Shown piece after piece: positions 1,535 through 26,082 of a DNA stretch of 64,000 bases (its first letter is position 1; every line of letters begins with the position of its first letter). Under the pieces are notes generated by a model. That model saw nothing but the letters and a program-made list of their open reading frames with translations. It did not search any database and was not told the origin of the DNA. The stretch is from Allosphingosinicella sp. (GTDB taxonomy: Bacteria > Pseudomonadota > Alphaproteobacteria > Sphingomonadales > Sphingomonadaceae). Position numbers and translations under genes: made by a program. The stretch covers positions 4,711 through 68,710 of the forward strand of contig DASTFN010000044.1 in assembly GCA_035719905.1 (NCBI GenBank), in the 5' to 3' direction.

Positions 1535-5488
<3,954 letters not shown>

Positions 5489-5499
5489 GCGCCCCTCTA

Positions 5500-5562
5500 G
5501 AATAAGCCGATTGCGTAGCTACGTTAAGTGATTGCGTGGCTCAAAACATCGATTGCGTGGCT
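5500..5562 (+). repeat. Three direct repeats GATTGCGT(A/G)GCT at 21-bp period; putative transposase-binding sites at the island end
   Basis: Copies at 5509-5520, 5530-5541 and 5551-5562, starting 21 bp after the gyrB stop codon. Confidence 0.8.
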
Positions 5563-6013
5563 AATAGCGGCAAATAACATGTAGGAAGCCCCCTGAAGAG
5601 GTTCGAGGGACGCGTCAGGTGGCGTCGCATACCTTTCGAGACCTCAAATGGCAGGCCGTTCCTGATCGAGCTCCCAGCACTGTCCGACGAGGGGTCGCCA
5701 AATGCGCTTCGCGACATGCCGGCGTTTCGGCCCCCCAAGCGAGGAAAATCAGCCTAGCCTTGGATGATTGTGAGGCTTGGTCGTCGGCCACTGAAATTCG
5801 GCCAAGTCGAACCAACGAATGACAAGGCGGTCGTATTAGACGGTGGCGTGACCTACGAAGCGGTTCGTTTCGGGGCCGCGGCGCTCAATGAGTTTGCTCA
5901 TTCGTTCATAAAACTGATGGACGGGCTTGTTGTTTTGAAAAGCAGCCTCCTGCCGTCTATTTGAGGTTGCAGCAGCAGATACCCTAGTTAGGCTCTCTGC
6001 GCGGGAGGTCTGA

Positions 6014-6931
6014 ATGGCAAATCGGCGCGAATGGAAGGGCGAGGAGTGGCAGGATTTTGCGCTGCAGCTCGTGCAACGCCGCCACGGCGCCGAAAATGTT
6101 CAGAGGGTGCCGGATACGGTCAAGGGCGATGCCGGTCTCGAATTTTTCACCACCTGCGGCTGTCTTTATCAATGCTACGCGCCCGAAGAGGTCTCGGACG
6201 TTAAGAAGGCCGCCAGTGCCATGAAGGCAAAGGCGGGTCGCGATCTGCCGAAGCTTGTAAAGAACCAGACGGTTATCGAAAATCTACTTGCGGGCACGAA
6301 GGTTCATCGCTGGATCCTTCTCTGCCCCTTTCTCGACGACAAGGAGGTAGTTGCATCGATCAGGGCGCGCGGCGTCACGATCAAAGCGAGCAACCTCTCG
6401 TTTGTACTTCCTAATTTCGAGGCGCTTTGCCATTCGCAAGACGATTTCCAGGCGGAGATCGACCAGCTGAAATCGATGTCGCTTGGCCCTCCGCTCAGCG
6501 TGGTGGCCCCGACAGCGCAACAAGTCACCGACGCTGGCAGCACCGAGATAGGAACGCGCATCGACGAGAAGCTCGGCCGTGCCCTCGGGAGGCGCGCGCG
6601 GCCCGATCAGATTGCCTCGAAGCGTAATGAATATGTGAGGGCCCATCTTCATCGCGAGAATGCGCTCGATCAGCTTCGCGACAATCATGCCGTGCTCTGG
6701 GAGCGGGCCTTCGAGGCGATCGAGGCAGAGGAGGCGCGGCTCATCGCGGTGGGGGCGATTTCGACGCTGCCTGGTCAGCAGCTTCAGGAGAGCATGAGTC
6801 GGATCGAGGCGTCCCTCACTGAGGCATTGCCGACGGTGAGCCCTGGCCTGCGAACGCGAATTGCTCTGGGCACGATCAGCGACTGGCTCATCCGTTGCCC
6901 CCTCGATTTTCCGGACGGCACTGTTTCGTGA
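6014..6931 (+). CDS. Lamassu/ABC-3C effector component (PD-(D/E)xK-like nuclease plus C-terminal domain)
   Basis: GDAGLEFF...YQCYAPE nuclease-like motif; C-terminal DWLIRCPLDF; first gene of a 3-gene coupled operon ending in an SMC-like ATPase. Confidence 0.75.
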   Translation: MANRREWKGEEWQDFALQLVQRRHGAENVQRVPDTVKGDAGLEFFTTCGCLYQCYAPEEVSDVKKAASAMKAKAGRDLPKLVKNQTVIENLLAGTKVHRWILLCPFLDDKEVVASIRARGVTIKASNLSFVLPNFEALCHSQDDFQAEIDQLKSMSLGPPLSVVAPTAQQVTDAGSTEIGTRIDEKLGRALGRRARPDQIASKRNEYVRAHLHRENALDQLRDNHAVLWERAFEAIEAEEARLIAVGAISTLPGQQLQESMSRIEASLTEALPTVSPGLRTRIALGTISDWLIRCPLDFPDGTVS

Positions 6932-7407
6932 CAGATCCCGAAATCACCGATGGACGCTTCTCGTTCCAGCGTCGACCGACCCCCGTGCCGGGTGATCTGC
7001 GAATAGCTTGGAGGGTCTCTCTGATCCTGCTGATGCTGGCGGCCTCGCGGTCGAGTCGGGCGTCGCTCGCCAAGCTGCACATCCTCAACGATGCGATCCG
7101 TTCCAATCAGGTCCATCGGCTGAAGGCCGCGACCGACGCCGATGCTCGAACGCTTCCATGGAATCTCCGCGTCGAACCCGCATTTGCTCGGGCGATCGAC
7201 TTCGTGGTGGGTGAACGTCTTGCGGCTTGGACGAAGGCCGGAGGGCGCGCTTCGCTACAGCTCACCGCCAGCGGGATAGCGGCAGCGGCAGGGCTTGAAC
7301 AATTCCAGGACGCACTTCAGGAGGAGCGAGCCATTATCGCAGAACATGCAAGGAAGCTGACCGAAATCCGTGTCACCGCCCTCCTGGGAGAAAGGCCTGA
7401 CGCATGA
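6928..7407 (+). CDS. ABC-3C middle component (LmuC-like), 159 aa
   Basis: GTG start overlaps the upstream stop (GTGA); small protein between effector and ATPase with R.EPAF.RAIDF motif. Confidence 0.7.
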   Translation: MTDPEITDGRFSFQRRPTPVPGDLRIAWRVSLILLMLAASRSSRASLAKLHILNDAIRSNQVHRLKAATDADARTLPWNLRVEPAFARAIDFVVGERLAAWTKAGGRASLQLTASGIAAAAGLEQFQDALQEERAIIAEHARKLTEIRVTALLGERPDA

Positions 7408-9482
7408 TCAGATTTCGGCATCTCCGGCTTCGGTCCTTTACTGCAACGCGCGCTTTCGGAGCCGACATTCCGTTCGGCCCGGGGCTGAACATAATTCAAG
7501 CGCCGAATACGTCCGGAAAGTCCACTTGCCTGCAGGCGGTGATTTATGCGCTCGGGCTTGAGCGATCGCTTGGTCCGCAGCTCGCTATCCCGCTACCATA
7601 CGCAATGCGCGAGCGCATCCATGCGGCAGAGAGTGAGCCTTACGAGCTCGTCCTGCAGTCGTTCGTTGAACTGGAAATTGAAAACGAACGTGGCGAGATT
7701 GTTGTCCTTCACCGTGATGTCGTCGGTGAGAAGAGCACCAAGCTGGTCCAGGCCTCCTTCGGCGCTGGCTTGAGCGAAGAGGCAGCGACGACACGCCAAC
7801 AAGACTTCTACGTCCTTGATGGCGGCGCTGCCGTTCAGGAAGACGGCTTTCATTACTTTCTGGCTAATTTTCTGAGGTGGAACCTGCCAACGGTCGCCCG
7901 TTACGATGGGACGGAATGCCCGCTCTATTTGGAAGCCATCTTCCCGATGCTCTTCGTTGAGCAGAAGCGAGGCTGGTCGACGATCCAGGGACCATTTCCC
8001 ACATACTTCCGGATCCAGGACGTCGCGCGCCGGGTAATGGAGTTCCTCCTGAACCTAGACGTCGCCCAATATCGCCGGGAACGGACTGATCTACGGCACG
8101 CGATCACGGAACTGAACAGCCGATGGGGAAGCGAGCGTGCAAAGCTTGCGGAGGCTGCCAACCGGATCGGTCGTGTTCGTGGGCTGCCGCAGTCACCCAC
8201 GGCAGAGTTCGCCTTGCAGCCTCAAATCGACCTGCAGCTGTTCCACGAGGGCGAATGGGTCCGGCTGTCGGAGTTGGTCGCCGAGGTGGAGAGCCGGATT
8301 GCTGAGCTGGAAGCCGCGCAATTGCAGACGGTCGAGGACGTCGCGCCGCAACTTGAAGCGCGCATCACCGTATTGCGCGAACAGATCGATCGCGAAACGG
8401 CCGTGCTGGAAGCCGTTCGCGGCGAACATGCCTCTGAAACCCAAGACAGCCAAGCCTTGACCTCGCGGGTCAGAACACTCGAGGTCGACCTGCGCCGTAA
8501 CCAGGACGCGCAGAAGCTGCAGCGTATGGGTTCCGAGCTCGGCAAGGCGTCCTCGGAACATTTGTGCCCGACGTGCCACCAAGGGGTATCGAACGAGCTG
8601 CTGCCGACCGTCGATGCGGTTGGCATGGGGCTCGATGAGAATGTCGCGTTCGTAAAATCGCAGCTGGAGCTTTATCGATCCGCATTGGCCTCATCTCGCG
8701 AACGGTTGCAGGAGATCGCTGGACGATTCCGAGGTGTCGAACGCAATCTGCAGGACAGGCAGCAGGAATTGCGAACCCTTCGGCAGGAATTGCTCAGGCC
8801 AGGAGCTTCCCCATCACGTGCGACGATCGAGAATCTCGTCCGCCAGCAGAGCTTCGTCAATCAGCTGCGCAGCATCGATGACCTTGCCATCTCGTTGATG
8901 GACGAACTCCAGGGCATCGCATCGGAATGGGCGCAGGCGACCGAAGCACTACGGAAACTCCCCGACGACAACCTGACCCCAAATGATACGAAGAAGGTTG
9001 AGGAGCTGACGCGGCGGATTTGCGAACAGCTTACGTCTTACCGGTTTCGGTCGTTCCAGCCGACGGAGATCTCGCTGTCGATGGACAATTTTCGTCCACT
9101 CGTCCGTGAGCGCGACGGCCTCGAAGTCATCGAAAAGGAGATCAATTTCGAGGTATCGGCGAGTGACGCGATCCGCCTGAAATGGGCGTATTTGCTCGCT
9201 ACGTTCGAACTCAAAAGCTCGCAGGACACGCACCATCCCGGCATCGTCATATTTGACGAACCGGGGCAGCAGGAGATCGATTCCGAGAGCCTGTTCGCTT
9301 TCCTGAAGCGAGCCGGCACAGCCAGCCGGAACGACGGTCAGATAATTGTCTCGACCTCGGAGCCGCTGCCTCTCGTTGAGGTCGAAATGCGCGACCGCGC
9401 CCGGATCATCGACTTTCCGGGCTTCATCCTGCAGCCTCTGGAAAAAGAAGTTCCTAATAGCCTTGAGGAGCTGCTGGGGTGA
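7404..9482 (+). CDS. SMC/Rad50-like ABC ATPase (LmuB-like)
   Basis: Walker A APNTSGKST, long coiled coil with CPTC zinc-hook-like motif, SASD signature, Walker B IVIFDEPGQQ; 692 aa. Confidence 0.88.
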   Translation: MIRFRHLRLRSFTATRAFGADIPFGPGLNIIQAPNTSGKSTCLQAVIYALGLERSLGPQLAIPLPYAMRERIHAAESEPYELVLQSFVELEIENERGEIVVLHRDVVGEKSTKLVQASFGAGLSEEAATTRQQDFYVLDGGAAVQEDGFHYFLANFLRWNLPTVARYDGTECPLYLEAIFPMLFVEQKRGWSTIQGPFPTYFRIQDVARRVMEFLLNLDVAQYRRERTDLRHAITELNSRWGSERAKLAEAANRIGRVRGLPQSPTAEFALQPQIDLQLFHEGEWVRLSELVAEVESRIAELEAAQLQTVEDVAPQLEARITVLREQIDRETAVLEAVRGEHASETQDSQALTSRVRTLEVDLRRNQDAQKLQRMGSELGKASSEHLCPTCHQGVSNELLPTVDAVGMGLDENVAFVKSQLELYRSALASSRERLQEIAGRFRGVERNLQDRQQELRTLRQELLRPGASPSRATIENLVRQQSFVNQLRSIDDLAISLMDELQGIASEWAQATEALRKLPDDNLTPNDTKKVEELTRRICEQLTSYRFRSFQPTEISLSMDNFRPLVRERDGLEVIEKEINFEVSASDAIRLKWAYLLATFELKSSQDTHHPGIVIFDEPGQQEIDSESLFAFLKRAGTASRNDGQIIVSTSEPLPLVEVEMRDRARIIDFPGFILQPLEKEVPNSLEELLG

Positions 9483-9752
9483 CCTTCGCCAGGGAATGCT
9501 AAGATAGATAGAGCGGAACGGCTCATGCCATCCAATGCCGACACGTGCTTATTTACCGGGAGCGGGTGCCCAAGATGGCTGAGTTCAGCCCTTCAAACAC
9601 AACGGTAGCATGGGCAGTTCAGACGCATCGCTAATTAACAGGTCGACCATTGATCTTTCGAACGCATTGTCGGTAACCTTCCGGTAGGCACCGCAGGCAG
9701 GTGATGGCGGCGATGGCTGATCGTTTCGGTCGGTCGTGAAGAGGAGGCTGCA

Positions 9753-10124
9753 ATGCGACTGAGCATCATCTGCTTCTGCGCTTCGGCGCTTGGCGGCTTG
9801 GCCTCCGCAGCGGCATTGAGCCAAGAGCGCCGGTATTCGGATCCAGTTACCTTCTGCGCCGCCGTTCGGACGACGAGTGACATTGTCGATAGCGGCAGCG
9901 ATCGCCGCTATCGCGGACCGGCTGCGCCGGATTGGATGCTTCGGGCCGTCGATGTAAGCCGCGAGGCGCAATGGGGGTCGCCGGTATATTGGCGATGCCG
10001 GGGCGGACGGGTGCTCGCTTGCGTCGCTGGCATGAGCGGCCTCAACGCTCAGGTTTGCTTCAAGGAGTTCAACAACGGTCGCTGGGACGAAGCGATTTGG
10101 CAGGACGTAACGCCGCGGCGATAG
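9753..10124 (+). CDS. Secreted Cys-containing hypothetical protein
   Basis: RBS GAGGAGG, signal peptide (..LASAAALS), YWRCRGGRVLAC. Confidence 0.7.
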   Translation: MRLSIICFCASALGGLASAAALSQERRYSDPVTFCAAVRTTSDIVDSGSDRRYRGPAAPDWMLRAVDVSREAQWGSPVYWRCRGGRVLACVAGMSGLNAQVCFKEFNNGRWDEAIWQDVTPRR

Positions 10125-10239
10125 AGGCTTGATCAGGCCCTGCACGATACCGGCGCGGTCCGCTATGATGACAATGTAGCATATCGAGATCTGGCGGCAC
10201 GAATGGATTGTTCACGAATAGAGCACGGGCCTGCCGGCC

Positions 10240-10650
10240 TTAACGCTGACAGTGAGGGCCGGGTCCATAAAACTTAATTGATCGACAAAGTGTAGTTTCT
10301 TCGAACCATTGTCCTTTAGTGAGGTCCTCCCCGCCAGCGGTCACAAGTAGCCATCGGCTTCCACGTCTCCATGCGTAGTGGCACCAAGAAACCGAGGCGC
10401 CGCAGGTAAGAACTTCGGGATGAGGAGGACAGCTGTCCCATCCGCAGGAGTTTTTGGGTGCAAGCGCGACAGGCTGCCACCCTGAGCGAATCAGCGCTGC
10501 GCGTACAGCCGGGTATCGCATCGATGTTGAAAGGCGCGGCATTGGTACACCGGCGCCTGAGGTTGCCGTTCGTGATTTCGGATGTTGAGCTATCAGGCTC
10601 GTGACCGGCATTGCGGTAATGAAAAGAAGAGCGACCAGTTTCCATTGCAT
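10240..10650 (-). CDS. Secreted Cys-rich hypothetical protein (paralog of 11072-11518)
   Basis: Probable start MQWKLVALLF at 10650; Y..VR..LIRSGWQP..CG..SCP..EV..C..C.YAW motif. Confidence 0.7.
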   Translation of the reverse strand: MQWKLVALLFITAMPVTSLIAQHPKSRTATSGAGVPMPRLSTSMRYPAVRAALIRSGWQPVALAPKNSCGWDSCPPHPEVLTCGASVSWCHYAWRRGSRWLLVTAGGEDLTKGQWFEETTLCRSIKFYGPGPHCQR

Positions 10651-10718
10651 TGCAGTCTCCCTGCGAGTTGCAGCTTTTCTGCGGCTCAAGTCCCACGATG
10701 CAGATGGCATGAACCTCG

Positions 10719-11030
10719 TCACTGAATTTCGGCGACTTCCGTAACTGTAGTGCGCTTGTCCATGATACAGACGAAGCGCCTGATGCTCCTCCGATCCGTA
10801 GCTTGCACGAGGGCAACGCCGTGACTTTCGGAGCCGAACGAGGAAACCTGCACTTCGATTCGATCGCCCATGCTGACAGCAGACGACCTCTTGAGCGCTT
10901 CCAGGCATTTTTGGCGTGTTTCCGCTCTGAAGCGCTCCCATTCCCCTGGAGGCGAGGCGTGGCTGGCGACTGCGCCAAAAAGCAGGATTGCGCCGGCCAG
11001 CGCCGATAGCCATGCTCCTGCTGTCACCAC
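10719..11030 (-). CDS. Small secreted hypothetical protein
   Basis: Signal peptide ending ASHA; two Cys; FGSE...CIMDKRT..EV. Confidence 0.65.
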   Translation of the reverse strand: MVTAGAWLSALAGAILLFGAVASHASPPGEWERFRAETRQKCLEALKRSSAVSMGDRIEVQVSSFGSESHGVALVQATDRRSIRRFVCIMDKRTTVTEVAEIQ

Positions 11031-11071
11031 ATTTTTCCCATTTCCCTATCCAGCACGCACATCCCACTCTC

Positions 11072-11518
11072 TCAGTTGCAGTGCCAAACCGCTGTGTACT
11101 GTCGATCCCGGGTAATCGAGGAGCAGCGCTTCAACCTTAAGAAGGTCTGCACCTCTCCCTCCCCGCCACCGGTAACCATCAAATAAGTGTTCGTCTTCTT
11201 CCAGGCATAGAAGCAGGGAGCCTCGGCTCCCACACCGGTGCACCAGATCACTTCCCGGAACGAAGGGCAGCTCCCCAAACCGCACTTACCGCCGGACAGG
11301 GGCAAGGGCGTCCAGCCCTGTCTGATGAGGCTTGATCGCACACGATCATAGCCCATGCCGCTTGGGAATTTCGGGAGCGCGGATGCCGTGGCTTGAGTGC
11401 CGCCGCGCCGCATCTGAGCCTGACTGGGGTCGGGTGAGCCTGACACCAACAGGCCGATCGTACCCAGCACCGTCGTCAGCCCGCCCAATTTGCCCGGAGC
11501 TCCCGCCATTTTCCGCAT
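11072..11518 (-). CDS. Secreted Cys-rich hypothetical protein (paralog of 10240-10650)
   Basis: Y.RVR..LIRQGWTP..CG..SCP..EV..C..C.YAW. The start could alternatively be 11578. Confidence 0.7.
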   Translation of the reverse strand: MRKMAGAPGKLGGLTTVLGTIGLLVSGSPDPSQAQMRRGGTQATASALPKFPSGMGYDRVRSSLIRQGWTPLPLSGGKCGLGSCPSFREVIWCTGVGAEAPCFYAWKKTNTYLMVTGGGEGEVQTFLRLKRCSSITRDRQYTAVWHCN

Positions 11519-11639
11519 CCTATCTCCGCCCGAACGTGCCGTCCGCTTCATATCGATGAACGATTGCAGCCTTCTCATGATCGCTTCCTCAGCCCCTCCG
11601 GGCCCGCATCGGCCCAAGCCGCCAAGGTCAGCTCACGGC

Positions 11640-12188
11640 TCACTCGGGGAAAACTTCCACGAAGCGCCCTGAGCGAAACAGGTAGCCCGTTCGCCCATCC
11701 GTCTCGCAGCCAGCGACGAAGGGAGCGTCGAGCGGCAGCACCTTGGTTGCGCCCGGATCAACGGTCCCGTCTCTGAGAATGGTTCGATAGGCGGTGCCCC
11801 GCCGAGCCACTCCGACGGCCTCGCTTAGCCGAGCCTCCGGCGACAGCGTGTGAATTCGGAACGTTGCCGCCTGAGCGATTGCCGCAACAATGCGCATCTG
11901 CCCGGTTCGAAGCCGCAGCTTCAGCACATAATCTCTTCGGCCGTCGCCGTTGAAGTCTCCTCCCCTGATGCCTTTCTGATATTCGGACGAGCATCCCTCG
12001 GCGACATCGATCCGTCTGGAACCGGGGAAATCTCGAACGATGGCTCGGTTCAGGGGCGTAAGGGGGTCGGCTCTGGGCAATTGAAGGGCAGCCGCCGGAG
12101 TCGGCGTCATGCCCATTACCGCGATAGCCGCCAGTCCAGCGAGGGCTGCCCGATCGCGAACAGGCCCTGCTGCTAAATCAGTTCTCAT
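11640..12188 (-). CDS. Secreted protein with FG-GAP-like Ca-binding motif
   Basis: RBS GGAGG, signal peptide, GDFNGDGRRDYV. Confidence 0.65.
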   Translation of the reverse strand: MRTDLAAGPVRDRAALAGLAAIAVMGMTPTPAAALQLPRADPLTPLNRAIVRDFPGSRRIDVAEGCSSEYQKGIRGGDFNGDGRRDYVLKLRLRTGQMRIVAAIAQAATFRIHTLSPEARLSEAVGVARRGTAYRTILRDGTVDPGATKVLPLDAPFVAGCETDGRTGYLFRSGRFVEVFPE

Positions 12189-12268
12189 CCTCGATCGCCT
12201 CCGTAATGAATGAGTTCGAGAACCGGTTTTGGTGGGCGCGCAGCGCGGTCGGATCCGACGAGGATCAC

Positions 12269-12682
12269 CTACAAGCCCGTGCACAGACGATAGCGGGTTT
12301 GCCCGTACTCATTAGCAACCATGAACTCGGTACGGCTTATGATCGTGTACCGTTCGGGTGTGGGGCTATCCTCGGAGCAGGAAGCGCGGACGGAATAGAC
12401 GTTTCTCGTCACGCTCGTGACCCGATAGCGACACTGGCCGAATTGCGGCGAGTGGAGCGGGAGCCCCTTTGAGATAACGGTCCTGTCGGCCATCGGGGCG
12501 GAGTCGCAGGAACCCGCACGCCACGCAGCAGCGCTGGCATCCACATATCTACCGCTTTGTAGCGGAAGCGTGGCCGCAGCTGAGCGACTTCTTTGTTGAG
12601 CGAAGGACGTGCTTTGCGAGGTGAAGGCGACAGCTGAGGTCAACAGGGCCAGGAATATGAGAGAGTGTCGTTGAAGCTTCAC
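12269..12682 (-). CDS. Secreted hypothetical protein
   Basis: Signal peptide, LPLQSGRYV..C, four Cys; coupled to the upstream gene. Confidence 0.65.
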   Translation of the reverse strand: MKLQRHSLIFLALLTSAVAFTSQSTSFAQQRSRSAAATLPLQSGRYVDASAAAWRAGSCDSAPMADRTVISKGLPLHSPQFGQCRYRVTSVTRNVYSVRASCSEDSPTPERYTIISRTEFMVANEYGQTRYRLCTGL

Positions 12683-12685
12683 GGC

Positions 12686-13258
12686 TCAGTCTCCTCCGAA
12701 TTCGTCCATGCCAGAAAATTCGCGCTGTGGGTTGCGGACCCACGCCGTCTTTCTCCCATCCAGCTGCACGCGCACCCACCAAGTCCAACGGAGGGGCGCC
12801 ACGCTGAGTGGTCGTTCGTAGCGAAGGTTGAGGTCGAGTGATCCTTGGATGATCCGTCCGCCATGCCGAACGACGATCGTGCCTTCGCCGCCGGGATGAA
12901 GCACGTCGACGATACTTCCGACGCGCAACCCCGCCGCACGGTCGGAGTCCCAGACCTTGATGACCATAGCTCTTCGTGGCACCGCCCTTACCTCGCCTCC
13001 TAAGGCAATGATCCTGGTCCCAGCGCGCAACGTGCCTGTTGGCGCTCCATTGATGGCCTGGAACAGCCGCACTGTCTGGCGAGCCCTCCAGGGGCCGAAC
13101 CTGCAGCCCTCGAACGGGCAGGCGTTCGGCACCCGCACCTCGCCGGATCCGGCCTGTAAGGGCCTTGCTGCCTTGCTTTTCGGCAGTTGTGCACCGACCG
13201 GCGGCGGTGAGCCCAAGAAGCCTGCGACCAAGGCAATTCCCAGCACGATCCTTTTCAC
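12686..13258 (-). CDS. Secreted hypothetical protein
   Basis: GTG start with AGGAG RBS, signal peptide ending VGA, CPFEGC motif. Confidence 0.65.
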   Translation of the reverse strand: MKRIVLGIALVAGFLGSPPPVGAQLPKSKAARPLQAGSGEVRVPNACPFEGCRFGPWRARQTVRLFQAINGAPTGTLRAGTRIIALGGEVRAVPRRAMVIKVWDSDRAAGLRVGSIVDVLHPGGEGTIVVRHGGRIIQGSLDLNLRYERPLSVAPLRWTWWVRVQLDGRKTAWVRNPQREFSGMDEFGGD

Positions 13259-13307
13259 GCGACAACTCCTTGATGGCAGGGCCCGAACTTGCGAGTGAGC
13301 CTTGAGA

Positions 13308-14399
13308 TCATCTGCCGGCAATCTTCCAGCCCGACTGCCAGCGCTGGGCATCGAAGCGGAATCGGATGGGTATGGCGGTTTGCGTTGACCACGCCGCATC
13401 CGGCGCCCTGACGCATTTGTCCACCATAGCCCGCTGCTGCCCGCGAAACCGCTTCATGTCCGTGACCCTGATCCAGGCCACCGCCTCTACCGGTACCATT
13501 CCGAACACCGCATCGCGCCCGATGTCCGTGACAGCGACTTTTTCGACGTCCATTATTTCCGAGCATGGGACCGTGCGCATCTTGATCGATCCGCATGTGA
13601 GACGCCCAGGCGGAGCCTGTCCGTTCTCGTCGCACCCTTCGTTGCTCGTGTCGAAGATGATCTTTTTTTGATCCATCAGATGGCTTCGAATCTGTGCCTC
13701 GAGCTGGCCGTTCTCGTCGGTGGGCTGGGGGGCCGGCGGTGCGGACGGAGCCGATGGGGCAACCACCTGTACGATCCGCAGCTCGGGTGTCCGGTAGTCC
13801 ATGGAGAAAGTACCGTGGTCGGTCGAACCCCGGATCTTCCAGGTTCCGGCGATCCGCTTCGCGCCGCTTTCGATGGTGCCGTCATAATCGATGATGAGGT
13901 CCGAACCGTAGGTCTTGCTAAAGTGCACTTTCGAACCCTGTATCTTGCCTTCCGCTTTGACGCTGTGCTTGGGCGCGCCTGCGGCGTCGAGCGAGTGGGG
14001 CTCCATCACTGTGCCGCTAAGTCGGTCCCCTTCGACGGAGGCAGCGAAAGTGAAGGGTGTTGGCGGGTCGTCGCTTCCGGCGTAGCTATAGGACCCTTCC
14101 CATGTGCCGCTCAGTGACCCGGCCTGCGCAGACGGTGCGGGGGGCGACGCCGCAGCGGCTTCGGGGCTAGTCCCACCTGCTTTCCAAGTCACTACTGCGG
14201 CCGCGGCCACCGCAACGGCCAGGCAAGCACCAATCGCGGCTGGCACGGGGAGGCGGCGCTTCTTCGGGGCCTCCGCAGCCTCTTCCTTTTCGACGGTAGC
14301 GACGGAAGTATCGTCTGGCGCAGTTTTCTGGCCACAATGCCGGCAAAAGCGATCCGACTGTTCGACCTTTTCTCCGCACTGTCCGCAAAATCCCGGCAT
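13308..14399 (-). CDS. Zinc-ribbon membrane-anchored protein with a beta-barrel-like periplasmic domain
   Basis: FCGQCG..FCRHCG double CxxC, one TM, then LSGTWEGSY..SGTV..GTW..GTFSM. Confidence 0.7.
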   Translation of the reverse strand: MPGFCGQCGEKVEQSDRFCRHCGQKTAPDDTSVATVEKEEAAEAPKKRRLPVPAAIGACLAVAVAAAAVVTWKAGGTSPEAAAASPPAPSAQAGSLSGTWEGSYSYAGSDDPPTPFTFAASVEGDRLSGTVMEPHSLDAAGAPKHSVKAEGKIQGSKVHFSKTYGSDLIIDYDGTIESGAKRIAGTWKIRGSTDHGTFSMDYRTPELRIVQVVAPSAPSAPPAPQPTDENGQLEAQIRSHLMDQKKIIFDTSNEGCDENGQAPPGRLTCGSIKMRTVPCSEIMDVEKVAVTDIGRDAVFGMVPVEAVAWIRVTDMKRFRGQQRAMVDKCVRAPDAAWSTQTAIPIRFRFDAQRWQSGWKIAGR

Positions 14400-14479
14400 C
14401 TGGCTATCCTGGACCGAGGTCACTGCCTGCTCTGAAGGACCCAACTCTCAAGCGAGCGCAGTCCATATTCGCGGTCAGA

Positions 14480-14764
14480 CTAGCGTCGACTGCCGTTTGG
14501 AAGGTTAGGCCACGGCTCGCACACCTTTTTATCCCACATCATGCGCCGAACCTCGAACCAGCACTTTCGGCATTGGGTCAGGGTCCGTCCGGTGGGCGTC
14601 GAGGGTTTAACACCCCCTCCGAATATGCCTTGTTGCCTGTAATCGCGACACTCATCCGGAGCGGGACGAGTTTGTTGTGCCGCAGAGCTGCTATATTCGG
14701 ATAGATTTACTGGGAAGCTCATGGCGAGGACGGAAAGAGCGATCCACAGGCACCTATACGTCAT
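14480..14764 (-). CDS. Small secreted Cys-rich hypothetical protein
   Basis: Signal-like N terminus, 5 Cys, RBS GGGGA. Confidence 0.55.
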   Translation of the reverse strand: MTYRCLWIALSVLAMSFPVNLSEYSSSAAQQTRPAPDECRDYRQQGIFGGGVKPSTPTGRTLTQCRKCWFEVRRMMWDKKVCEPWPNLPNGSRR

Positions 14765-14911
14765 GTCGGTTCCCCACTGCAGAGATTGAACTGCACTCGA
14801 CTCGTACGCAAACCGGAAAGCTACTTGTTATCTAGCCCCTCGTAAAGCGCTCCTCATCACGTTCTCATTTACATTTATTCTCAAATCACGGCGTACATAG
14901 CGGTCAGGGGG

Positions 14912-15367
14912 TCAGCCGGCCCTCTGGCCTTTGCGGACGCGGATCAGGCGATCCCGGTGCGCCTTCAGGACTAACGCACCGGCTACCTTCCAGCCGATAA
15001 ACGTGAAGATCGCGAACGCGAACATAAGCCACGTTAGGTCGAGTTCAGATCGGGCGGTTGTGAGTTCACGTTGGAAGAATGCGAAAGTGTAGCAACCTCC
15101 CACATACCCGGCGATGGCTGCTCGAGCGATGCCCGGCGGCACTGAACGGATTAGCATGCCACCTAGTCTCCAGACGGCCCACACTGCCGCCCCGGTAAGG
15201 ACAATCACAATCGCCGGATGCAAGGTGGTCACACCTGTGAGGATAGCCAGCTTGTACAAAACGTAGGCGGGAAAGAAGGCTGGTATGAGCACAAGCGCAG
15301 TTGCAAACAGCAGAAGGCCAAGGCCGCCCGCGGTGCTGGAGACTTGCTGATCCGGATCACGGGTCAT
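14912..15367 (-). CDS. Integral membrane hypothetical protein (about 4 TM)
   Basis: Hydrophobic segments; RBS GGAG. Confidence 0.65.
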   Translation of the reverse strand: MTRDPDQQVSSTAGGLGLLLFATALVLIPAFFPAYVLYKLAILTGVTTLHPAIVIVLTGAAVWAVWRLGGMLIRSVPPGIARAAIAGYVGGCYTFAFFQRELTTARSELDLTWLMFAFAIFTFIGWKVAGALVLKAHRDRLIRVRKGQRAG

Positions 15368-15398
15368 TCGATTCGCTCCTGCAGGACGTCAATCGGCC

Positions 15399-15914
15399 TC
15401 AGTCGCTGGTCCAGCGGACCGCAGGCTTGCCATTGCGCATCTTGAAGAGCGCGGAGCTCGACTCCGGACAGGTGAAAGCCACGGCAGTGCGATCGGTTCG
15501 GTCAGGTTCGATGTAGCAGCTGCCTGTCCAAGGTCCCTTGAAGCTGGCGATCGTCAGAGGCCGCCGTTTCGGCTTGCCGGCGAACTCTACGACCAGGGCG
15601 CTGACGGCGCGGCCATCGACCATCCGCACCAAGTCCGCCGTGCCGTTTCGGTCGTAGTCGACCCGGGCAGCAAAGGTGCACTTGTTGTAATCGGCCTTGT
15701 CGCATCGTGCAGCCGGAACCGGGCGCAGCCTGTCCCTGACGAGATCAGGTGTGCCGGCTTGAAAGGGTGACTCCCAAGTACTCGCGGGGGAGGTGGCGAC
15801 AGCGAACTGCGGCCAGAAAAGAGCGACCAGCGGTAGCCATTGGAGGCCCCATCTGGATCGGGCTAGGCTTTGATCGCCCTGTGCTTGTGAATTCCAGCCC
15901 TTGTTTTTGGCCAC
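15399..15914 (-). CDS. Secreted hypothetical protein with FG-GAP-like motif
   Basis: GTG start with GAGGAG RBS; VDYDRNGTADLV; TCPESSSALF. Confidence 0.65.
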   Translation of the reverse strand: MAKNKGWNSQAQGDQSLARSRWGLQWLPLVALFWPQFAVATSPASTWESPFQAGTPDLVRDRLRPVPAARCDKADYNKCTFAARVDYDRNGTADLVRMVDGRAVSALVVEFAGKPKRRPLTIASFKGPWTGSCYIEPDRTDRTAVAFTCPESSSALFKMRNGKPAVRWTSD

Positions 15915-16499
15915 GCGCGGTCTCCTCTAACGCCAGCCAGACAGCCGGCGGCATCTCCCCAAAAAGGGGCAAATGGGGAAAGGAGCTTTTATGTGACGCG
16001 CCCGACCCCGTGCTCAGCACCGCCACCCGGGAGCCGGGCGGTTTGAACACGTGCGAGCACGGATGCAGCACGCCCCACGTATTCGCCGTGAGGCTGTTGT
16101 ATTTCGTGGGCCGCCCGACATGAGCGGACCGTGCTCGGCACGCGTGGTGCACCGACGAAGCTGTTCAAGACTCCGGCGGCGAGGAGGAAACTACGCTGAT
16201 GTTTCCGCCTCGGCAAGCGAGACGACGTTACCTTCGCTCCTCAGGGTGCTGAGACTGCGTTGGAGGTAGCGACTTGCCGGGCGGCAGGCCTCGGCGTATC
16301 CCCATTGCGCGTTCCCGATCGTGGATGTGAGGGAGCGCCCGCCTTAGGGCGCGTGGACCACAGGCACCGGCTTCGGTCGGGTGGCCTGCCGAATAAAACA
16401 CCCTTCGGGGGAATAAGCAGGGCGCACACCCCTGTGGTCCATGCGCATCCAACCACCCGGCTAGGGGCTGGGTGAGGCGGTGGCCGCAGGGGAAGCCGC

Positions 16500-16610
16500 A
16501 TGCCGAATCAACCCAGTCGCACCGAGCTCACGCTCGTGGCGCTGTCGTGGGCGATGTTCGCCTTCACGCTCTTGGTCGCGCTTAGAAACTGGTCTGGCTC
16601 CCCTCGCTAG
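16500..16610 (+). CDS. Putative 36-aa single-TM peptide (below ORF-track cutoff)
   Basis: Manual translation MPNQPSRTELTLVALSWAMFAFTLLVALRNWSGSPR*; purine-rich GGGGAAG upstream. Confidence 0.4.
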   Translation: MPNQPSRTELTLVALSWAMFAFTLLVALRNWSGSPR

Positions 16611-16729
16611 GCCGGTTGCCCCCGCCGTGGACGCTTCCTCCAGCGGGGGCGGGGGCCGGAGTATGCGAACGCAGGACTCCGGCCCCCAAGCATCATCTTA
16701 CGCGGCTTGATACGAGAGCCGTCCGGCCA

Positions 16730-18043
16730 TCAATTGTTCGTCATCACCCGGATCGCAACTTCGTCATCGATATAGTCAATCGGCATGTAGACGATCTGGC
16801 TGGCGCCGCCGCTGGTCGCGCCGCCTGCGGTGATGATCCCATAGGCCTTGATGTTGCCGGCCGAATCCGCCGGCGAGAAGACCGCGCCGCCGCTGTCGCC
16901 GGGCGCGGCGATCAGCGACCCCGAGTTCCGGACCGCGTGGATCCAGCCTTTGACCCCGTTATAGGTGTAGGCGCCGTTGTCGATCGTCCCGCAGACGAGC
17001 CCGGTCTTCCACCCGGACTTGCAGATCGCCATGCCCGACGTCTGACCGTAATAGCCGACGGTGCCGGTCACATAGAAATAGCCGCCGCGCGGATAAGCGG
17101 GTTCGGTCGAGTAATTCTCGTAATAGACCCACGAGCCGGTATCCATGCCGGTCGTCTCATGGAACTGGTAATCGTATTTCGTGCCGTAGGCCCAGCGCGC
17201 GATGGTCGGGCTGGGCAGTTGCACCCAATGGCCCTCGACCGAATACCAGTACTTGCCGTCGGGACCCGGTTCGCAGTGGCCTGCGGTGAGGATGCCCTTC
17301 GTCGTCCCGAGCGTCGCCGGGAAAGCGAAGGAGCAGCCCTTGTACGGGTCGGGGTTGACCGGATCGATCTGGTTGGTCTGCCAATAGTTGAACCCGCCGT
17401 AGATATAGTCGCCGAGCTGCACGCCCACCGGCGCCGCCGTCGGCGTCGGGATTGGACCGACCTCCACCCTCGGCGCGGGCGAGATGCCGGCGAGCGCGGT
17501 CCTCACCTTGTCGGCCTCCGCGGCAGTCTCGACCCGCACCGCCAGCGTCCCCGTCTCCTCCTCGATCCAGCTCGTGAACTTCTTGATCCCGGCCGCCTGG
17601 ATGCGCTTGTTCACGTCGTCCTGCTCGGCGAGCACCGCCTTGCGCGGCCGAGGCATCTTCTTGAGCTGGACGTAACGCCGGATCTTCGGATCGATCTGGT
17701 ATTTGAGAAGCTTGCGGTCGTCGGGATCGGTGAAGCCGATCACGATCTTGAACACCGGCGTCTGCTGGACCCAGATTCCCGCAAACGACGGGTCGTCGTC
17801 CTTGAACACCTGCGCCACCAGCGCGGATATCTCGTCCTGCAGCCGAATCCGCTCGGCCGCGTCCGCGACGCTGATCCCATAAGTGGAAGCGAGATAGCTC
17901 GCTCCGGGTGGAACGTCCGATTTCGTCGCCGCCTTTGGCTTGGGCGGCGCTTTCGGCGCCTCGGCAGTGGGTTGGGCAAGGCTCGCTGTCCCAAGCAGAG
18001 CCAGAGCTGAAATGAAGCAACGCACCACGGGAAACCGGTTCAT
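16730..18043 (-). CDS. Secreted S1-family serine protease (alpha-lytic/streptogrisin-like, with pro-region)
   Basis: Signal peptide; ILTAGHC (catalytic His), YDY, CKSGWKTG..CG, GDSGG (catalytic Ser). Confidence 0.9.
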   Translation of the reverse strand: MNRFPVVRCFISALALLGTASLAQPTAEAPKAPPKPKAATKSDVPPGASYLASTYGISVADAAERIRLQDEISALVAQVFKDDDPSFAGIWVQQTPVFKIVIGFTDPDDRKLLKYQIDPKIRRYVQLKKMPRPRKAVLAEQDDVNKRIQAAGIKKFTSWIEEETGTLAVRVETAAEADKVRTALAGISPAPRVEVGPIPTPTAAPVGVQLGDYIYGGFNYWQTNQIDPVNPDPYKGCSFAFPATLGTTKGILTAGHCEPGPDGKYWYSVEGHWVQLPSPTIARWAYGTKYDYQFHETTGMDTGSWVYYENYSTEPAYPRGGYFYVTGTVGYYGQTSGMAICKSGWKTGLVCGTIDNGAYTYNGVKGWIHAVRNSGSLIAAPGDSGGAVFSPADSAGNIKAYGIITAGGATSGGASQIVYMPIDYIDDEVAIRVMTNN

Positions 18044-18052
18044 GTCACATCC

Positions 18053-18598
18053 TCACGTTCCGTTGATCGCATAGAGATCCTTCGGGCAGCCCTGCCCGGG
18101 AGCGGCGCTGAGCCGCAGATCGGTCGCGCCCGGCCGGCCGAAGAGTCCTCCGGGGAGGTTGACGGTCGCCCCCAGCTCGAATTCCGTGCCGTTCGGCAGA
18201 CGTATCCGCGGACGCTCCGCCGTGCCCGCCCATCGCGTCCCCGCCGGCCACACCGGCGTCGATCGTCGCTCGCCCGACTTGAAGACCAGGCACGTCCCCT
18301 CGATGCCCAGCGTCCCCATCTGAAGCGCCAGCGGCAAGGGATGGTCGGAGCGTTCGTTGAATATCAGGGGGACGGGGTCACGCACGGCCTGAGTACCCAC
18401 CGCCGAAGGCTGGGCGGCGGCCGGGTCGGGAGAACTCACATTGGCGGGCGGGGACTCGTCTTCGCGGTTCACCGAATCGGGAGCCGAGCTGCACGAGGCC
18501 AGCAGCAGAACGCCAAGCGTACAGTACGCATGTTTCACAGACATCTGTTTCGACACAACGCTACAAACTAGGCCGATTCTACGCTTGGCGATCGACAT
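18053..18598 (-). CDS. Lipoprotein co-transcribed with the S1 protease
   Basis: Lipobox LLASC; GTL..EGTCLV..PVWPAG; AGGAG RBS; ends 9 bp before the protease start. Confidence 0.7.
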   Translation of the reverse strand: MSIAKRRIGLVCSVVSKQMSVKHAYCTLGVLLLASCSSAPDSVNREDESPPANVSSPDPAAAQPSAVGTQAVRDPVPLIFNERSDHPLPLALQMGTLGIEGTCLVFKSGERRSTPVWPAGTRWAGTAERPRIRLPNGTEFELGATVNLPGGLFGRPGATDLRLSAAPGQGCPKDLYAINGT

Positions 18599-18823
18599 CG
18601 TTCCGACTCCTTTCATTCGTCTTCTTTCGCAAAGCACCCTCGGGCCGTGTGCTGACTCCGCTTTGGAGCGGAAATTTCATCGTCATCCTTAACAGTCCCG
18701 ACGGTAACTTACTCGACAGGAATCTGTAGCCGCTCGCATGCTCTAGGTCGTAGATGGGGCCGACTACGAGACCCGCCGGTAGGACGCGCCCTTATCCAGT
18801 GCACTGGATCGCACCACCACCTT

Positions 18824-19243
18824 CTAGGTCTTCTTGGCCTTGAGCACGAAGGCGGCGCAGCCTTCGACGAATTCCCAGCTGGAACCACGGCAATCGCGTG
18901 GACTCGTCACCTTGCGCGCCTCAGCCCAGCGATAACCTGCCTCGTGGCGCTCGCAGCCGCCCGGGCAGCCGAAACCGCGGAAGCCGGCTTGTTCCTCTGT
19001 GTGCCGCCTTGCATCATAAGCCGAATAGGTCTCGCCGTTCTTCACGCCGTCAATAGGAACGCCGGTGTGGAACAGGGTGCGGCTACCGGACGCTTCGTCC
19101 GAGTGAGGGCCGCCATAGCCGAATAAGTCGACCACCGAGCGCCGGAGCCCATCATCCATCGAGACAAGTGCGCCTATGAAGGCAAGGACCACGAGCGCCA
19201 TTGCTGCGAGAAGCAGCCCGGGGCGGTCGGTGCGAATCCCCAT
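18824..19243 (-). CDS. Membrane-anchored Cys/His hypothetical protein
   Basis: One TM, then C..GC..HEAGYRWA..C.G.S..FVEGC; ATG overlaps the CDF stop (TGATG). Confidence 0.7.
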   Translation of the reverse strand: MGIRTDRPGLLLAAMALVVLAFIGALVSMDDGLRRSVVDLFGYGGPHSDEASGSRTLFHTGVPIDGVKNGETYSAYDARRHTEEQAGFRGFGCPGGCERHEAGYRWAEARKVTSPRDCRGSSWEFVEGCAAFVLKAKKT

Positions 19244-20157
19244 CAAACCGTCTCCGGCGGCGCCTGCTCGCAATCCTCGTGCGGCGCCGTCTCGATCTGG
19301 ATCGTCGAATGCTCAATGCTGTAGCGCTCGTGGAGCATCTTTGCAGCCTCGCGCAGGAAACCATCGTCCGGACGGCCCCCAGGCATAACCAGGTGGCAGG
19401 TGAGCGCCACCTCGGTCGTGCTCATCGGCCAGATGTGGAGATCGTGAACCCGCTCGACCCCGGTCAGGGCAGCGAGGCTCGCCTCGACGTTGGCGGGCAC
19501 GATCCGGGACGGCACCGCGTCGAGCGACATCGAGAGGGACTCGCGCAGAAGTCCCCAGGTGCCGACGAAGATCACCGCGACGATGACGATGCTGACCAGC
19601 GGATCGATCCAGTGCCAGCCGGTCTTCCAGATGATCAATCCGGCCACCACCACTCCGGCCGACACCGCGGCGTCGGCCGCCATGTGCAGATAGGCGCCAC
19701 GGATGTTGATATCGCCCTTCCGGCCGCTCGCGAACATCCAGGCGGTGATGCCGTTGACGACGATGCCGATCGCCGCGACGATCATCACGGTCCCGCCCTC
19801 CACTGGATGGGGATGGGTGAAGCGGCGCGTCGCCTCGACCGCGATCGCGCCGATGGCGACGAGCAGGAACACCGCGTTGAACAAGGCGGCCAGCACCGAG
19901 GACTTGCGCAGGCCGTAGGTGAAGCGCTCGCTGGGAGGCCGCTTCGTCAGCCTTACGGCGCCCCAGGCGACCAGCAGGCCGAGGACATCCGAGAGGTTGT
20001 GCCCGGCGTCGGCCAGCAGCGCCATCGAGTTGGCGAGGAAGCCGTAGCCCGCCTCGACCAGGACGAAGCCGATGTTGAGGATCGCGCCGATCAGGAAGGC
20101 GCGGCCGAAATCCTGCGGCGCGTGGCTGTGGCCGGAATGGTCGTGTCCTGCACCCAT
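19243..20157 (-). CDS. czcD: Cation diffusion facilitator (CzcD/ZitB-type) transporter
   Basis: His-rich N terminus, LLADAGHNLSD, AYLHMAAD, VHDLHIW. Confidence 0.92.
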   Translation of the reverse strand: MGAGHDHSGHSHAPQDFGRAFLIGAILNIGFVLVEAGYGFLANSMALLADAGHNLSDVLGLLVAWGAVRLTKRPPSERFTYGLRKSSVLAALFNAVFLLVAIGAIAVEATRRFTHPHPVEGGTVMIVAAIGIVVNGITAWMFASGRKGDINIRGAYLHMAADAAVSAGVVVAGLIIWKTGWHWIDPLVSIVIVAVIFVGTWGLLRESLSMSLDAVPSRIVPANVEASLAALTGVERVHDLHIWPMSTTEVALTCHLVMPGGRPDDGFLREAAKMLHERYSIEHSTIQIETAPHEDCEQAPPETV

Positions 20158-20209
20158 GATCAACACTCCTGCCTTTTCATAACGCCGCCGTCACCCACGA
20201 ACGGTCCCA

Positions 20210-23200
20210 TCACTTCGCCTCCGCCGGGCGGCCGAATATGCTCTCGCCCTCGTAATCGCCCCTCAGATGCGGCTTGCGCACCCGGAGCAGCAGCCGGCTG
20301 ATCGCCGGAAGCACGAACAGGGTGAGCAGGGTTGCGACGATTAGCCCGGCGATGACGACAATCGCGAGCGGCTTCTGGACCTCGGCGCCGCGGCCCGTCG
20401 CCACCGCCATCGGGACGAAGCCGATGGCCGGGACCACTCCGGTGATGATGACGGCGCGCACCCGCTCCATCATGCCGTCTACGATCGCGTCGGCGACCGG
20501 CACGCCGTCGGCCATGCGCTGGCGGATGCTGGTCATGACAACGAGCCCGTTCAGCACCGTCACTCCGGAGAGGACGATGAAGCCCACCGCCGCCGAGATC
20601 GAGAAGGAGAGGCCGGCGAGGAACAGTCCGAAGACTCCGCCCGCCAGGCCCAGCGGCACCGCCGAATAGACGGCGAGCGCCGCCGAGACGCTGCGCAGCG
20701 CCATGAACAGAATCCCGAAGATGAGGAGGAAGACGAGCGGGATGACCAGCGTCAGGCGAGCCGAGGCGGCCTGGAGGTTCTCATACTGGCCGCCCCAGCG
20801 GATGAAGACCCCCGGGGGAAGCTGGACCTCGCGGCCGACCCTCGCTTGCGCCTCCTCGACGAACGAGCCGAGATCGCGGCCGCGAACATTGGCCTGGACG
20901 ACGACCCGGCGCTGGCCGTTCTCGCGGCTGACCTGGTTGACCCCTTCCGAGACCTGGAAGCTGGCGAGCTGGCTGAGCGGGACCGATTGGCGCACGCCTA
21001 CGCCCTCCGGCAGCATCACCGGCAGCGCACCGACCGCCTCCAGGTCATCGCGGGACCGATCGTCGAGCCGAACGACGATGTCGAACCGCCTGTCGCCTTC
21101 GAAGACGAGACCGGACTCCCGCCCACCCAGCGCAGCGGCGACGGTGTCGCTCACCTCCGTCATCGACATGCCGTAGCGGGCGATGGCGTCGCGGTTGAAC
21201 TGGACGTCGAGCGTCGGGAAGCCGGCGGTCTGCTCGACGCGAAGGTCCGAGGCGCCCTCGATCCGACCGACGATGCTTCCGATCCGGGCCGCCACCCGCT
21301 CGAGCTGGCCCAAATCGTCGCCGAAGACCTTGATCGCGACGTCGCCGCGAACGCCCGCGATGAGCTCGTTGAAGCGCATCTCGATCGGCTGGCTAACCTC
21401 GTAGGCGTTGCCGGTAAGGCTCGCCATCTTCGCCTCGATCCGCTCGACCACCGCCTCCTTGCCGTCGACCCCGTCCGGCCACTGGTCCTCGGGCTTGAGA
21501 ATGACGAACGAATCCGAGACATTCTGCGGCATCGGATCCGTGGCGACCTCGGCGGTCCCGGTCTTCGAATAGACGAATGCCACTTCGGGAAGCGACGAGA
21601 TCGCCCATTCCACCCGCCGCTGCATGTCGAGCGACTGGTCCAGCGATGTCGACGGGACCCGGATCGCCTGTACGGACAGATCGCCCTCGTCGAGCTGGGG
21701 GATGAACTCCTGGCCGAGCGTCAGGAACAGGATGCCGGCCGCGACGAAGGTGCCGACACCGGCGCCGATCCACGGCCAAGGCCGTGCGATAACCCGCCGC
21801 AGCAGCGGTTCGTAGCGCGCCTTGACCCAGAGGATGGCCTTGACCTCCTTTTCCGCCACCTTCCCCCGGATAAGGATCGCCACCATCGCAGGGACGAACG
21901 TCAGCGAGAGGACGAAGGCCCCGACCAGGGCCAGCATCACCGTCACCGCCATCGGCGTGAACATCTTGCCCTCGACCCCCGTGAAGGTGAGCAGGGGCGC
22001 GAAGACGAGCAAGATGATTGCTTGGCCGTAGACGGTGGGACGGACCATCTCCTTCGAGGCCTCGAAGACCTCGTGGAGGCGTTCCGGCAAGGTCAGCAGC
22101 CGTCCCTCTCCATGCTGCCGCTCCGCGAGCCTTCGCAGGCAATTCTCGATGATGATAATCGAGCCGTCGACGATCAGCCCGAAGTCGAGCGCCCCGAGGC
22201 TCATCAAATTCCCGGAAACGCCGTACTGGTTCATCCCGATCGCCATCGTCAGGAACGAGAGCGGGATGACGAGCGCGGCGATGATCGCCGCCCGGATGTT
22301 GCCGAGCAGCCAGAACAGCGAGGCGATCACCGCCAAGGCGCCGAGGACAAGATTTTCCTCAACGGTCGAGATCGTCGCCTCGACCAGTGCCGAGCGGTCG
22401 TAGACGGGAGTGACCCGCACTCCGGGCGGCAGCGAGCGGGAGACCTCCTCCAATCTCTCGGCGACCGCCTTGGCGACGATCCGGCTGTTGCCACCGGCCA
22501 GCATTAGCGCGGTGCCGACGACCGTCTCCCGGCCGTTGATCGACGCGGCGCCGGTGCGCAGCTCGCCGCCGACCTGGACGGTGGCGACATTGGCGACGGT
22601 CACTGGAACCCCGCTACGAGTGGCGACAGCGGTGCGACCGATCTCGTCGATATGACGGATGCGGGCGTCGGCGCGGACGAGGAAAGCTTCGCCGCCCCGC
22701 TCGATGAAGTTCGCGCCCACCGAGATGTTCGCCCGCTCCAGCGCCTCGGCGAGCTCGGAGAAGGAGATTCTGTAGGCGGCGAGCCTGCTTGGATCGGGCT
22801 GGACGACGAACTGCTTCTCGTACCCCCCGATCGAATCGATGCCGGCGACGCCCTTGACGGTGCGGAGCTGCGGGCGAACAACCCAGTCCTGGACGGTCCT
22901 CAGATAAGCGAGGCGCGAGACCTCATCGCTCAATTGCTCGCCCTCGGGCGTCAGGTAGGAGCCGTCCGGTTGGAAGCCGGGGCGGCCGGCGATCTTCGGA
23001 TTGCGGGCCGTGGCCGTGGGCGCGAAGCCGACCGTCCACATCAGGACCTCGCCGAGGCCGGTCGAGACCGGCCCCATCTGCGGCTCGACGTCCGCCGGCA
23101 GGCTCTCGCCGGCCTGGGCGAGCCGTTCTGCGACCTGTTGCCGCGCAAAATAGATGTCGACGCCCTCGTCGAACACGGCCGTCACCTGGGCGAAACCGTT

Positions 23201-23461: not shown

Positions 23462-23462
23462 C

Positions 23463-24671: not shown

Positions 24672-24682
24672 GGCATGGATCC

Positions 24683-26023: not shown

Positions 26024-26082
26024 GATTCATCCTGAAATCCGACAGCTTCGAGGTCGCCTGCGAACAGGCGGCGAGGCGGATT

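Follow-up and report, generated by a model that had tools for sequence, protein, structure and literature searches.

Predicted TnsB-binding boxes at the gyrB-proximal end of an apparently intact Tn7-like transposon from Sphingomonadaceae

Insertion of Tn7 (E. coli) at attTn7, through TnsABC together with TnsD, takes place about 25 bp after the stop codon of glmS, and the two ends of this transposon are unequal, with four sites at the packed end and three at the spread end. The type I-F3 CRISPR-associated transposons, which include PseCAST/Tn7016 and Tn6677, have TniQ proteins of about 400 aa, while Tn5053/Tn402 (TniABQR) has no TnsA, carries TniR and inserts at res sites. The TGT/ACA termini of Tn7-like elements are not universal: about 20% of one cyanobacterial Tn7-like set was without TGT/ACA (PMC9881144), and functional non-TGT ends include TAC/GTA in the type I-D McCAST and TGA/TCA in some I-F3 elements (Hsieh and Peters 2022, PMC9881144).

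In the window analyzed here, the whole stretch of 64,000 nucleotides (C44:4711-68710), gyrB was directly followed by three near-identical 12-mers, which a preliminary description had taken for the end of a Tn7-like element whose tns genes lie 54 kb away. This proposal was supported by an inverted array at the distal side, matching tips and a GCCCC duplication. It is highly probable that the boxes are TnsB-binding repeats, their binding being predicted from sequence, and that they mark the end nearest gyrB of a 61,580-bp Tn7-like transposon that is apparently intact. The end itself is an ordinary one for a Tn7-like element homing to gyrB. Moderately new are the use of gyrB as a homing site by a Sphingomonadaceae clade and termini that read TCT. 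The Tn7-like hallmarks that can be read from sequence were all found, apart from TGT tips and a TnsA with more than a weak profile match.

Box arrays, tips and boundaries

The features at the two ends were as follows.

2993..5488, plus strand: gyrB, 831 codons, ATG at 2993, stop TGA 5486-5488; presumed attachment-site gene
5491..5495, no strand: target-site duplication, left copy GCCCC, identical to the 5 nt after the distal tip
5496..5563, plus strand: gyrB-proximal end module (terminus and three phased boxes), conserved with the G168 sister element
5496..5508, plus strand: terminal 13 nt of the gyrB-proximal end, TCTAGAATAAGCC; TCT terminus, not TGT
5509-5520, plus strand: Box 1, GATTGCGTAGCT, predicted TnsB binding site; sister-element weight matrix score 20.2
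5530-5541, plus strand: Box 2, GATTGCGTGGCT, predicted TnsB binding site; sister-element weight matrix score 20.7
5551-5562, plus strand: Box 3, GATTGCGTGGCT, predicted TnsB binding site; sister-element weight matrix score 24.9
C44:71662-71785 (window-equivalent 66952-67075), minus strand: distal end, four boxes
C44:71786-71790 (window-equivalent 67076-67080): target-site duplication, right copy GCCCC

The sequence ran from the gyrB stop codon TGA (5486-5488) through GC, GCCCC and the 13-mer TCTAGAATAAGCC to the three 12-mers. Their positions as first described, at 5509, 5530 and 5551, and their 21-bp period were reproduced: the start-to-start spacing was 21 + 21 bp, about two helical turns, with offsets of 14, 35 and 56 from the tip. 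The spacers of 9 nt each were mutually unrelated, which is why Tandem Repeats Finder reported nothing in 5300-6100; Rfam gave no match in the same interval. Exact copies of GATTGCGTRGCT numbered three in the 64-kb window against 0.02 expected, and none of 100 dinucleotide shuffles reached three. The whole 3.88-Mb genome, searched on both strands, contained four, the fourth of them inverted at C44:71693-71704 (window-equivalent 66983). The genome was also scanned in full with a weight matrix built from 11 sites, all of them from sister elements in other genomes. The six highest scores in the genome fell on the two tips: on the plus strand the three gyrB-side boxes, and on the minus strand three of the four distal ones. 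Scores below these were clearly lower and scattered across the genome.

The preliminary description also contained a weaker copy, matching at 10 of 12 positions, at 5766-5777. Such a copy is present, but it does not belong to the array. Matches with at most two mismatches numbered 14 against 10.5 expected, which is the chance level, the copy fell below the threshold of the sister-element weight matrix, and the DNA around it was not conserved between sister elements, whose conservation was limited to the first 68 bp. Separately, a single weak box, GGTTGCGTTGAG, was observed at 59207-59218 (plus strand), where it precedes tnsA by about 55 nt. No obvious counterpart was seen in G168, and the box might serve TnsB in autoregulation or simply be a chance match.

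Inverted copies downstream of tniQ and a 5-bp target duplication had been suggested as checks on the original proposal, and both were found. Four boxes lay on the minus strand at C44:71662-71772, directly after the second tniQ-family ORF and about 3 kb past the end of the window. They comprised the exact copy of GATTGCGTRGCT and three boxes sharing the ATTGCGT core, at offsets of 14, 61, 82 and 113. Read inward, the distal tip was TCTGCCATAAACC followed by the first box, which mirrors the gyrB side: both tips consisted of 5'-TCT, 10 nt and then the first box, and outside each tip stood GCCCC. The 13-mer TCTAGAATAAGCC could be aligned with TCTGCCATAAACC and with the sister tips of G168, G169 and G376, and the likeness ended exactly at TCT. 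Since the tips matched and the same GCCCC was present on both sides, one element of 61,580 bp was bounded, from window position 5496 to window-equivalent 67075, with its start 7 nt after the gyrB stop. The GC content was 0.634 within the element and 0.68 in both flanks. A caveat raised at the outset, that no 5'-TGT terminus stands before the first box, holds true; the tips are 5'-TCT...AGA-3' and are shared by members of the clade.

Transposition genes, target gene and cargo

The distal 7.8 kb of the element contained five genes in the order tnsA-tnsB-tnsC-tniQ1-tniQ2, and all five ORFs were open and of full length. The 54-kb separation of the boxes from these genes is explained by the cargo, which sits between the target-proximal end and tnsA.

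5564..59270, no strand: cargo, about 53.7 kb, with Pfam matches and the GC difference from the flanks given above
59271..59933, plus strand: tnsA-like, 220 aa; directly upstream of tnsB
59944..62241, plus strand: tnsB, 765 aa, DDE transposase; presumed reader of the boxes
62238..63353, plus strand: tnsC, 371 aa, AAA+ regulator; PF05621 TniB 79.6 bits vs cut-off 22.4
63350..64000, plus strand: tniQ1, 5' part in the window; full gene 585 aa, to window-equivalent 65107
Beyond the window, ending at window-equivalent 66985: tniQ2, up to 668 aa

The TnsA-like ORF gave weak matches to PF08722 (E=0.002; 19.1 bits, cut-off 26.5) and to NF033179 TnsA_like (E=8e-4, also below cut-off). Its product was 73% identical to that of the gene at the same position in G168, and this position was kept in the sister elements. 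TnsB had no Pfam match, and a phmmer search against the PDB matched it to PseCAST TnsAB (1.3e-39), Tn6677 TnsB (1.3e-27) and Tn7 TnsB (2.1e-11); its catalytic triad of D, D and E aligned with that of the solved TnsB structures. Both TniQ proteins exceeded the PF06527 TniQ cut-off of 27 bits, TniQ1 scoring 36.3 bits and TniQ2 53.1 bits. When modeled with AF2 (pLDDT 71.8), TniQ1 was matched by Foldseek to TniQ structures determined by crystallography and cryo-EM with a probability of 1.0 (E=1.5e-5), and its C-terminal extension showed a weak helix-turn-helix resemblance. No cas genes or CRISPR array were noticed in the ORF lists of the tns region.

The two TniQ proteins differed in how they were conserved. 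TniQ1 was conserved over its full length between the gyrB-targeting lineages at 35% identity, the same as TnsB, whereas conservation of TniQ2 was confined to the N-terminal TniQ domain. TniQ2 also diverged faster among close relatives (47% vs 70% identity). Because of its full-length conservation between lineages that target gyrB, TniQ1 appears to be the better candidate for the gyrB selector, and TniQ2 may serve another targeting pathway. A sample of 400 genomes from across the Alphaproteobacteria, nearly all of them outside the family, yielded no TniQ1 homologue. Among 5.8 billion proteins searched, only 22 relatives came up, and none of these had a functional name.

The identity of the target gene was established by NCBIfam TIGR01059 (968.6 bits vs cut-off 882.4), by the Pfam gyrase B domains and by recF upstream; the gene flanking the element is thus gyrB, not the glmS of attTn7. 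The 3' 45 nt of gyrB were near-identical across eight element-bearing genomes, and this conserved stretch of about 45 nt is likely to be the selector binding site. Nineteen genomes from the genus and the order had DNA after gyrB that was different in almost every case and contained no ATTGCGT boxes. The comparison with gyrB loci of relatives, another check proposed in the preliminary description, therefore favored its reading, with the boxes absent in the 19 relatives lacking the element and present with the sister elements. The first 800 bp beyond the right-hand tip were not matched in the 1.5 kb after gyrB of any of these 19 relatives (one genome per species). Only a gene that starts about 0.7 kb further right was syntenic with gyrB, in G009, G005 and G017, at 0.9-4.5 kb, and this comparison yielded no clean empty site. 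Since the DNA after gyrB varies among relatives while the right-hand gene is still syntenic, the interval is a variable hot spot. In G003 (L008), a single box-like AAATAAGTC-GATTGCAT followed the gyrB stop, and in G009 (L004) the DNA 6 nt after the stop began with TGTATAAGATCG. The post-gyrB DNA in L004, L007, L008 and other relatives could stem from further elements at this hot spot, as their ends or remnants. No paper linking Tn7, TnsD or TniQ to a gyrB attachment site was found in the Tn7 literature searched, and gyrB and gyrase were unmentioned in the text and supplements searched of the two large Tn7-like surveys.

The cargo included a metal-resistance block at 20210-38363, with an RND pump and its membrane-fusion and outer-membrane partners, copper resistance of the CopA/CopB type (a multicopper oxidase plus CopB) and a heavy-metal P-type ATPase. 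Defence-like candidates were located at 44855-50624 and 7404-9482, namely an LA2681-type HEPN protein, a DUF4062-TPR protein, a 711-aa radical SAM protein and an AAA_23/SMC_N ATPase. An ORF of 493 aa at 57628-59109 on the minus strand stood head-to-head with tnsA within the cargo. The idea that it is a dead TnsB/TniA paralogue was not supported by sequence, as BLASTP against the TnsB of the element gave E=1.3 and Pfam and NCBIfam gave nothing.

Related elements in Sphingomonadaceae

Seven other Sphingomonadaceae genomes contained related elements that started 6-9 nt after their own gyrB stop, four of them with perfect 5-bp duplications that differed from each other, and the eight element-bearing genomes spanned at least five genera. 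The tns genes lay on the gyrB strand, downstream of gyrB, wherever the contig allowed this to be seen. Insertion at this site and in this orientation has thus occurred repeatedly and independently. The layout was common to the clade, with cargo from the gyrB-side end up to tnsA and with the last tniQ next to the distal end.

The element of G168, a Sphingomonas MAG, was about 99 kb long and encoded a TnsB with 78% identity. Its end started 9 nt after the gyrB stop with TCTGAAATAAACC and continued with three boxes at 21-bp spacing; the distal tip mirrored it, and AGAAT flanked both tips. When the first 1.6 kb of the present element was compared with that of G168, only the first 68 bp were conserved (positions 6-68, 82.5% identity); conservation stopped after the terminus and the three boxes, which delimits the functional end. 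The asymmetry of the ends, with inverted arrays, also held in G168 and G169. In G376, which belongs to another genus, the end was 99.87% identical to that of G168 over 1.5 kb, whereas the gyrB genes were 84.7% identical and the flanking 5-mer differed. This difference indicates a recent horizontal arrival at the same site. The genome of G376 is 99% complete and contained the end with no TnsB.

Distant members were found by a TniQ1 search of the family and a TnsB search of the genus. In G162, G797, G318, G743 and G816, TnsB was about 33-40% and TniQ1 29-37% identical to those of the present element, and the elements lay at the same place and in the same orientation, again starting 6-9 nt after the gyrB stop. 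Their gyrB-proximal ends mostly had phased boxes 21 bp apart with another box sequence, and G816 was without clear boxes. The duplications that were checked on both sides were GTGGA, CCGGT and GGCCG (5/5 each) and CGGCC/CGGCG (4/5). The tip at gyrB was TCT in six genomes (the present element, G168, G376, G162, G797 and G318) and TGT in G743 and G816, and TCT...AGA was found at all five close-family ends examined as well as at the ends of three more distant members. Judged from these tips, the missing TGT is a trait of the lineage.

Several other observations were made in the course of these comparisons. At the distal end of the G162 element (L053 reverse complement ~8810-8870; G162:C45 ~68130-68190), two AATTGCGTCC boxes were oriented like the gyrB-side boxes and not inverted, and a clear inverted repeat was limited to the terminal 25 nt. 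In the MAG G169, a close relative of the element, with 67-72% identity in TnsB, was located on an 8.9-kb contig (L036, JANMJZ010000051.1; L040). No transposon end followed gyrB in this MAG, and the relative was not beside the gyrB contig, so that either a second insertion site, possibly through a TniQ2 pathway, or mixed strains in the bin would account for its placement. The element of G743 measured 8 kb, and it was considered as a minimal complete transposon. Pfam analysis rejected this, as tnsABC was absent and tniQ1 truncated; the element is decayed, with cargo remaining. In this element (L058, G743:C4:89700-104000, 1744-4863), an aGPT-Pplase3/ADDT gene stood beside a thymidylate-synthase-like gene and an IrrE-like M78 peptidase gene, a cargo that by its gene content is a putative DNA hypermodification-type module.

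The sole metagenome match to the three-box end pattern, L047 (OLFV01000314.1, 3178-3219), was an unrelated 21-bp tandem repeat with no tns genes. Genes for a HAD hydrolase and a nucleoside phosphorylase flanked it on this low-GC contig, an IS200-like Y1 transposase gene was close by, and the repeat unit equaled the terminal 21 nt of the G169 element end, probably by coincidence or as a REP-like repeat. Matches to the terminal pattern with one mismatch in G181, G271 and G505 were also discarded, since no box arrays accompanied them and a reversed-pattern control was equally frequent.

Interpretation and comparison with known systems

Other explanations of the boxes were weighed against these data. 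Twelve-mers phased at two helical turns are also typical of cooperative repressors, and the boxes might be operators of a host transcription factor in the gyrB 3' region or before the downstream gene, or a short repeat that arose by chance. However, they were absent after gyrB in 19 relatives and present only together with the element, in three hosts; with 0.02 copies expected by chance and no Rfam match, such an origin is scarcely credible. It is also very improbable that the boxes belong to another element than the tns genes, either as arm-type sites of a tyrosine integrase or as an older end, which would make the 61.6 kb a composite. The ORFs scanned beside the boxes contained no integrase or recombinase domain, and the same box type, inverted, occurred only at the tns-proximal tip. 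A composite would fit the 54 kb between the boxes and tnsA and the hot spot downstream of gyrB, where nearly every relative has different DNA, but identical 5-bp duplications and matched tips bracketed exactly this interval, and the same ends were paired with tns genes again in G168, G162, G318 and G816.

A genuine transposon end could still be a fixed fossil in which the machinery or the TCT tips are inactive. We consider this unlikely, although the clade includes decayed or non-autonomous members (G743 without tnsABC and the G376 end without TnsB) and the tips are without the usual CA-3'. The five tns ORFs are open and of full length with aligned DDE residues, and the target duplication is perfect. 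Furthermore, TCT tips were found in several separate insertions with different duplications (the present element, G168 and G318), and one end arrived recently, with 99.87% identity between two hosts that share 84.7% in gyrB. The preferred reading is therefore that of TnsB-binding repeats at the end of an apparently intact Tn7-like transposon, for which we infer that TnsB would bind the boxes, that TniQ1 would read gyrB and that this copy would still be mobile.

By analogy with Tn7, TnsB would bind the three head-to-tail boxes, which are phased at 21 bp with the first of them 13 nt from the tip, and also the four inverted, wider-spaced distal boxes, so that the ends would be paired in an asymmetric transpososome. 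The terminal box would place the active site of TnsB at the tip, and the unequal number and spacing of boxes at the two ends would give the complex its polarity. TnsA and TnsB would then excise the element at the TCT...AGA tips. A long selector of the TniQ/TnsD type, with TniQ1 favored, would bind the last ~45 nt of gyrB and recruit the TnsC ATPase, leading to insertion in one orientation 6-9 nt after the stop with a 5-bp duplication. A broader proposal is that the post-gyrB stretch near the replication origin is a safe harbour read by a new TnsD-type TniQ1, that several unrelated lineages converged on it and that transposition proceeds with AGA-3' ends. This is put forward tentatively, at slightly below even odds.

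With these results, a previously unexplained repeat marks the exact limits of a 61.6-kb island of metal-resistance and defence-like genes, and gyrB joins the conserved genes whose 3' flank is a homing site of the Tn7 type. For genome annotation, insertion at the gyrB site explains the hypervariable DNA after gyrB in the genus. The coding sequence of the GyrB C-terminus is conserved very widely, and thus a selector reading it could serve in many bacteria. If TniQ1 does read gyrB, it would offer protein-guided, single-copy integration in a fixed orientation near oriC, in the way that attTn7/glmS is used. The natural occurrence of TCT and TGT tips on similar ends in one clade also provides a comparison for why TGT/ACA is common and for the role of the terminal CA.

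Compared with Tn5053/Tn402, the element differed in having a TnsA-like ORF before tnsB, a tns module without a resolvase ORF and the gyrB 3' flank as its target. The type I-F3 CRISPR-associated transposons were closer: PseCAST/Tn7016 and Tn6677 provided the closest solved TnsB structures (1.3e-39 and 1.3e-27), and the closest TniQ folds were also of this type (Foldseek E=1.5e-5 to 5e-4). Unlike the TniQ proteins of about 400 aa in those transposons, TniQ1 with 585 aa and TniQ2 with up to 668 aa have C-terminal extensions with weak helix-turn-helix resemblance, which would be expected for protein-guided targeting of the TnsD type and not for RNA-guided targeting. Functional Tn7-like elements without TGT have been published (PMC9881144), and therefore the TCT tips do not exclude Tn7-like membership. 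The present tips differ from those published in being a TCT/AGA variant that coexists in one clade with TGT members (G743 and G816), and the transposase here is not a TnsAB fusion.

The element resembled Tn7 in its gene set, with a protein weakly resembling TnsA, a DDE TnsB, an AAA+ TnsC and a long selector of the TniQ family, and in its directly repeated sites, packed at one end and spread at the other in inverted arrays. Both are flanked by a 5-bp duplication and are inserted in a single orientation a few bases past the stop of a gene that is essential and highly conserved. In both, the packed end adjoins this gene and the tns genes are transcribed in its direction. The differences from Tn7 lay in the target, which was gyrB instead of glmS, in insertion 6-9 nt after the stop throughout this clade, in the TCT/AGA tips, and in the number of sites, three where they are packed and four where they are spread. 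In addition, TnsB was only distantly related to that of Tn7 (2e-11), and the second selector was a TniQ paralogue and not TnsE. The cargo was located between the target-proximal end and tnsA, with the tns operon abutting the distal end, also unlike the arrangement in Tn7.
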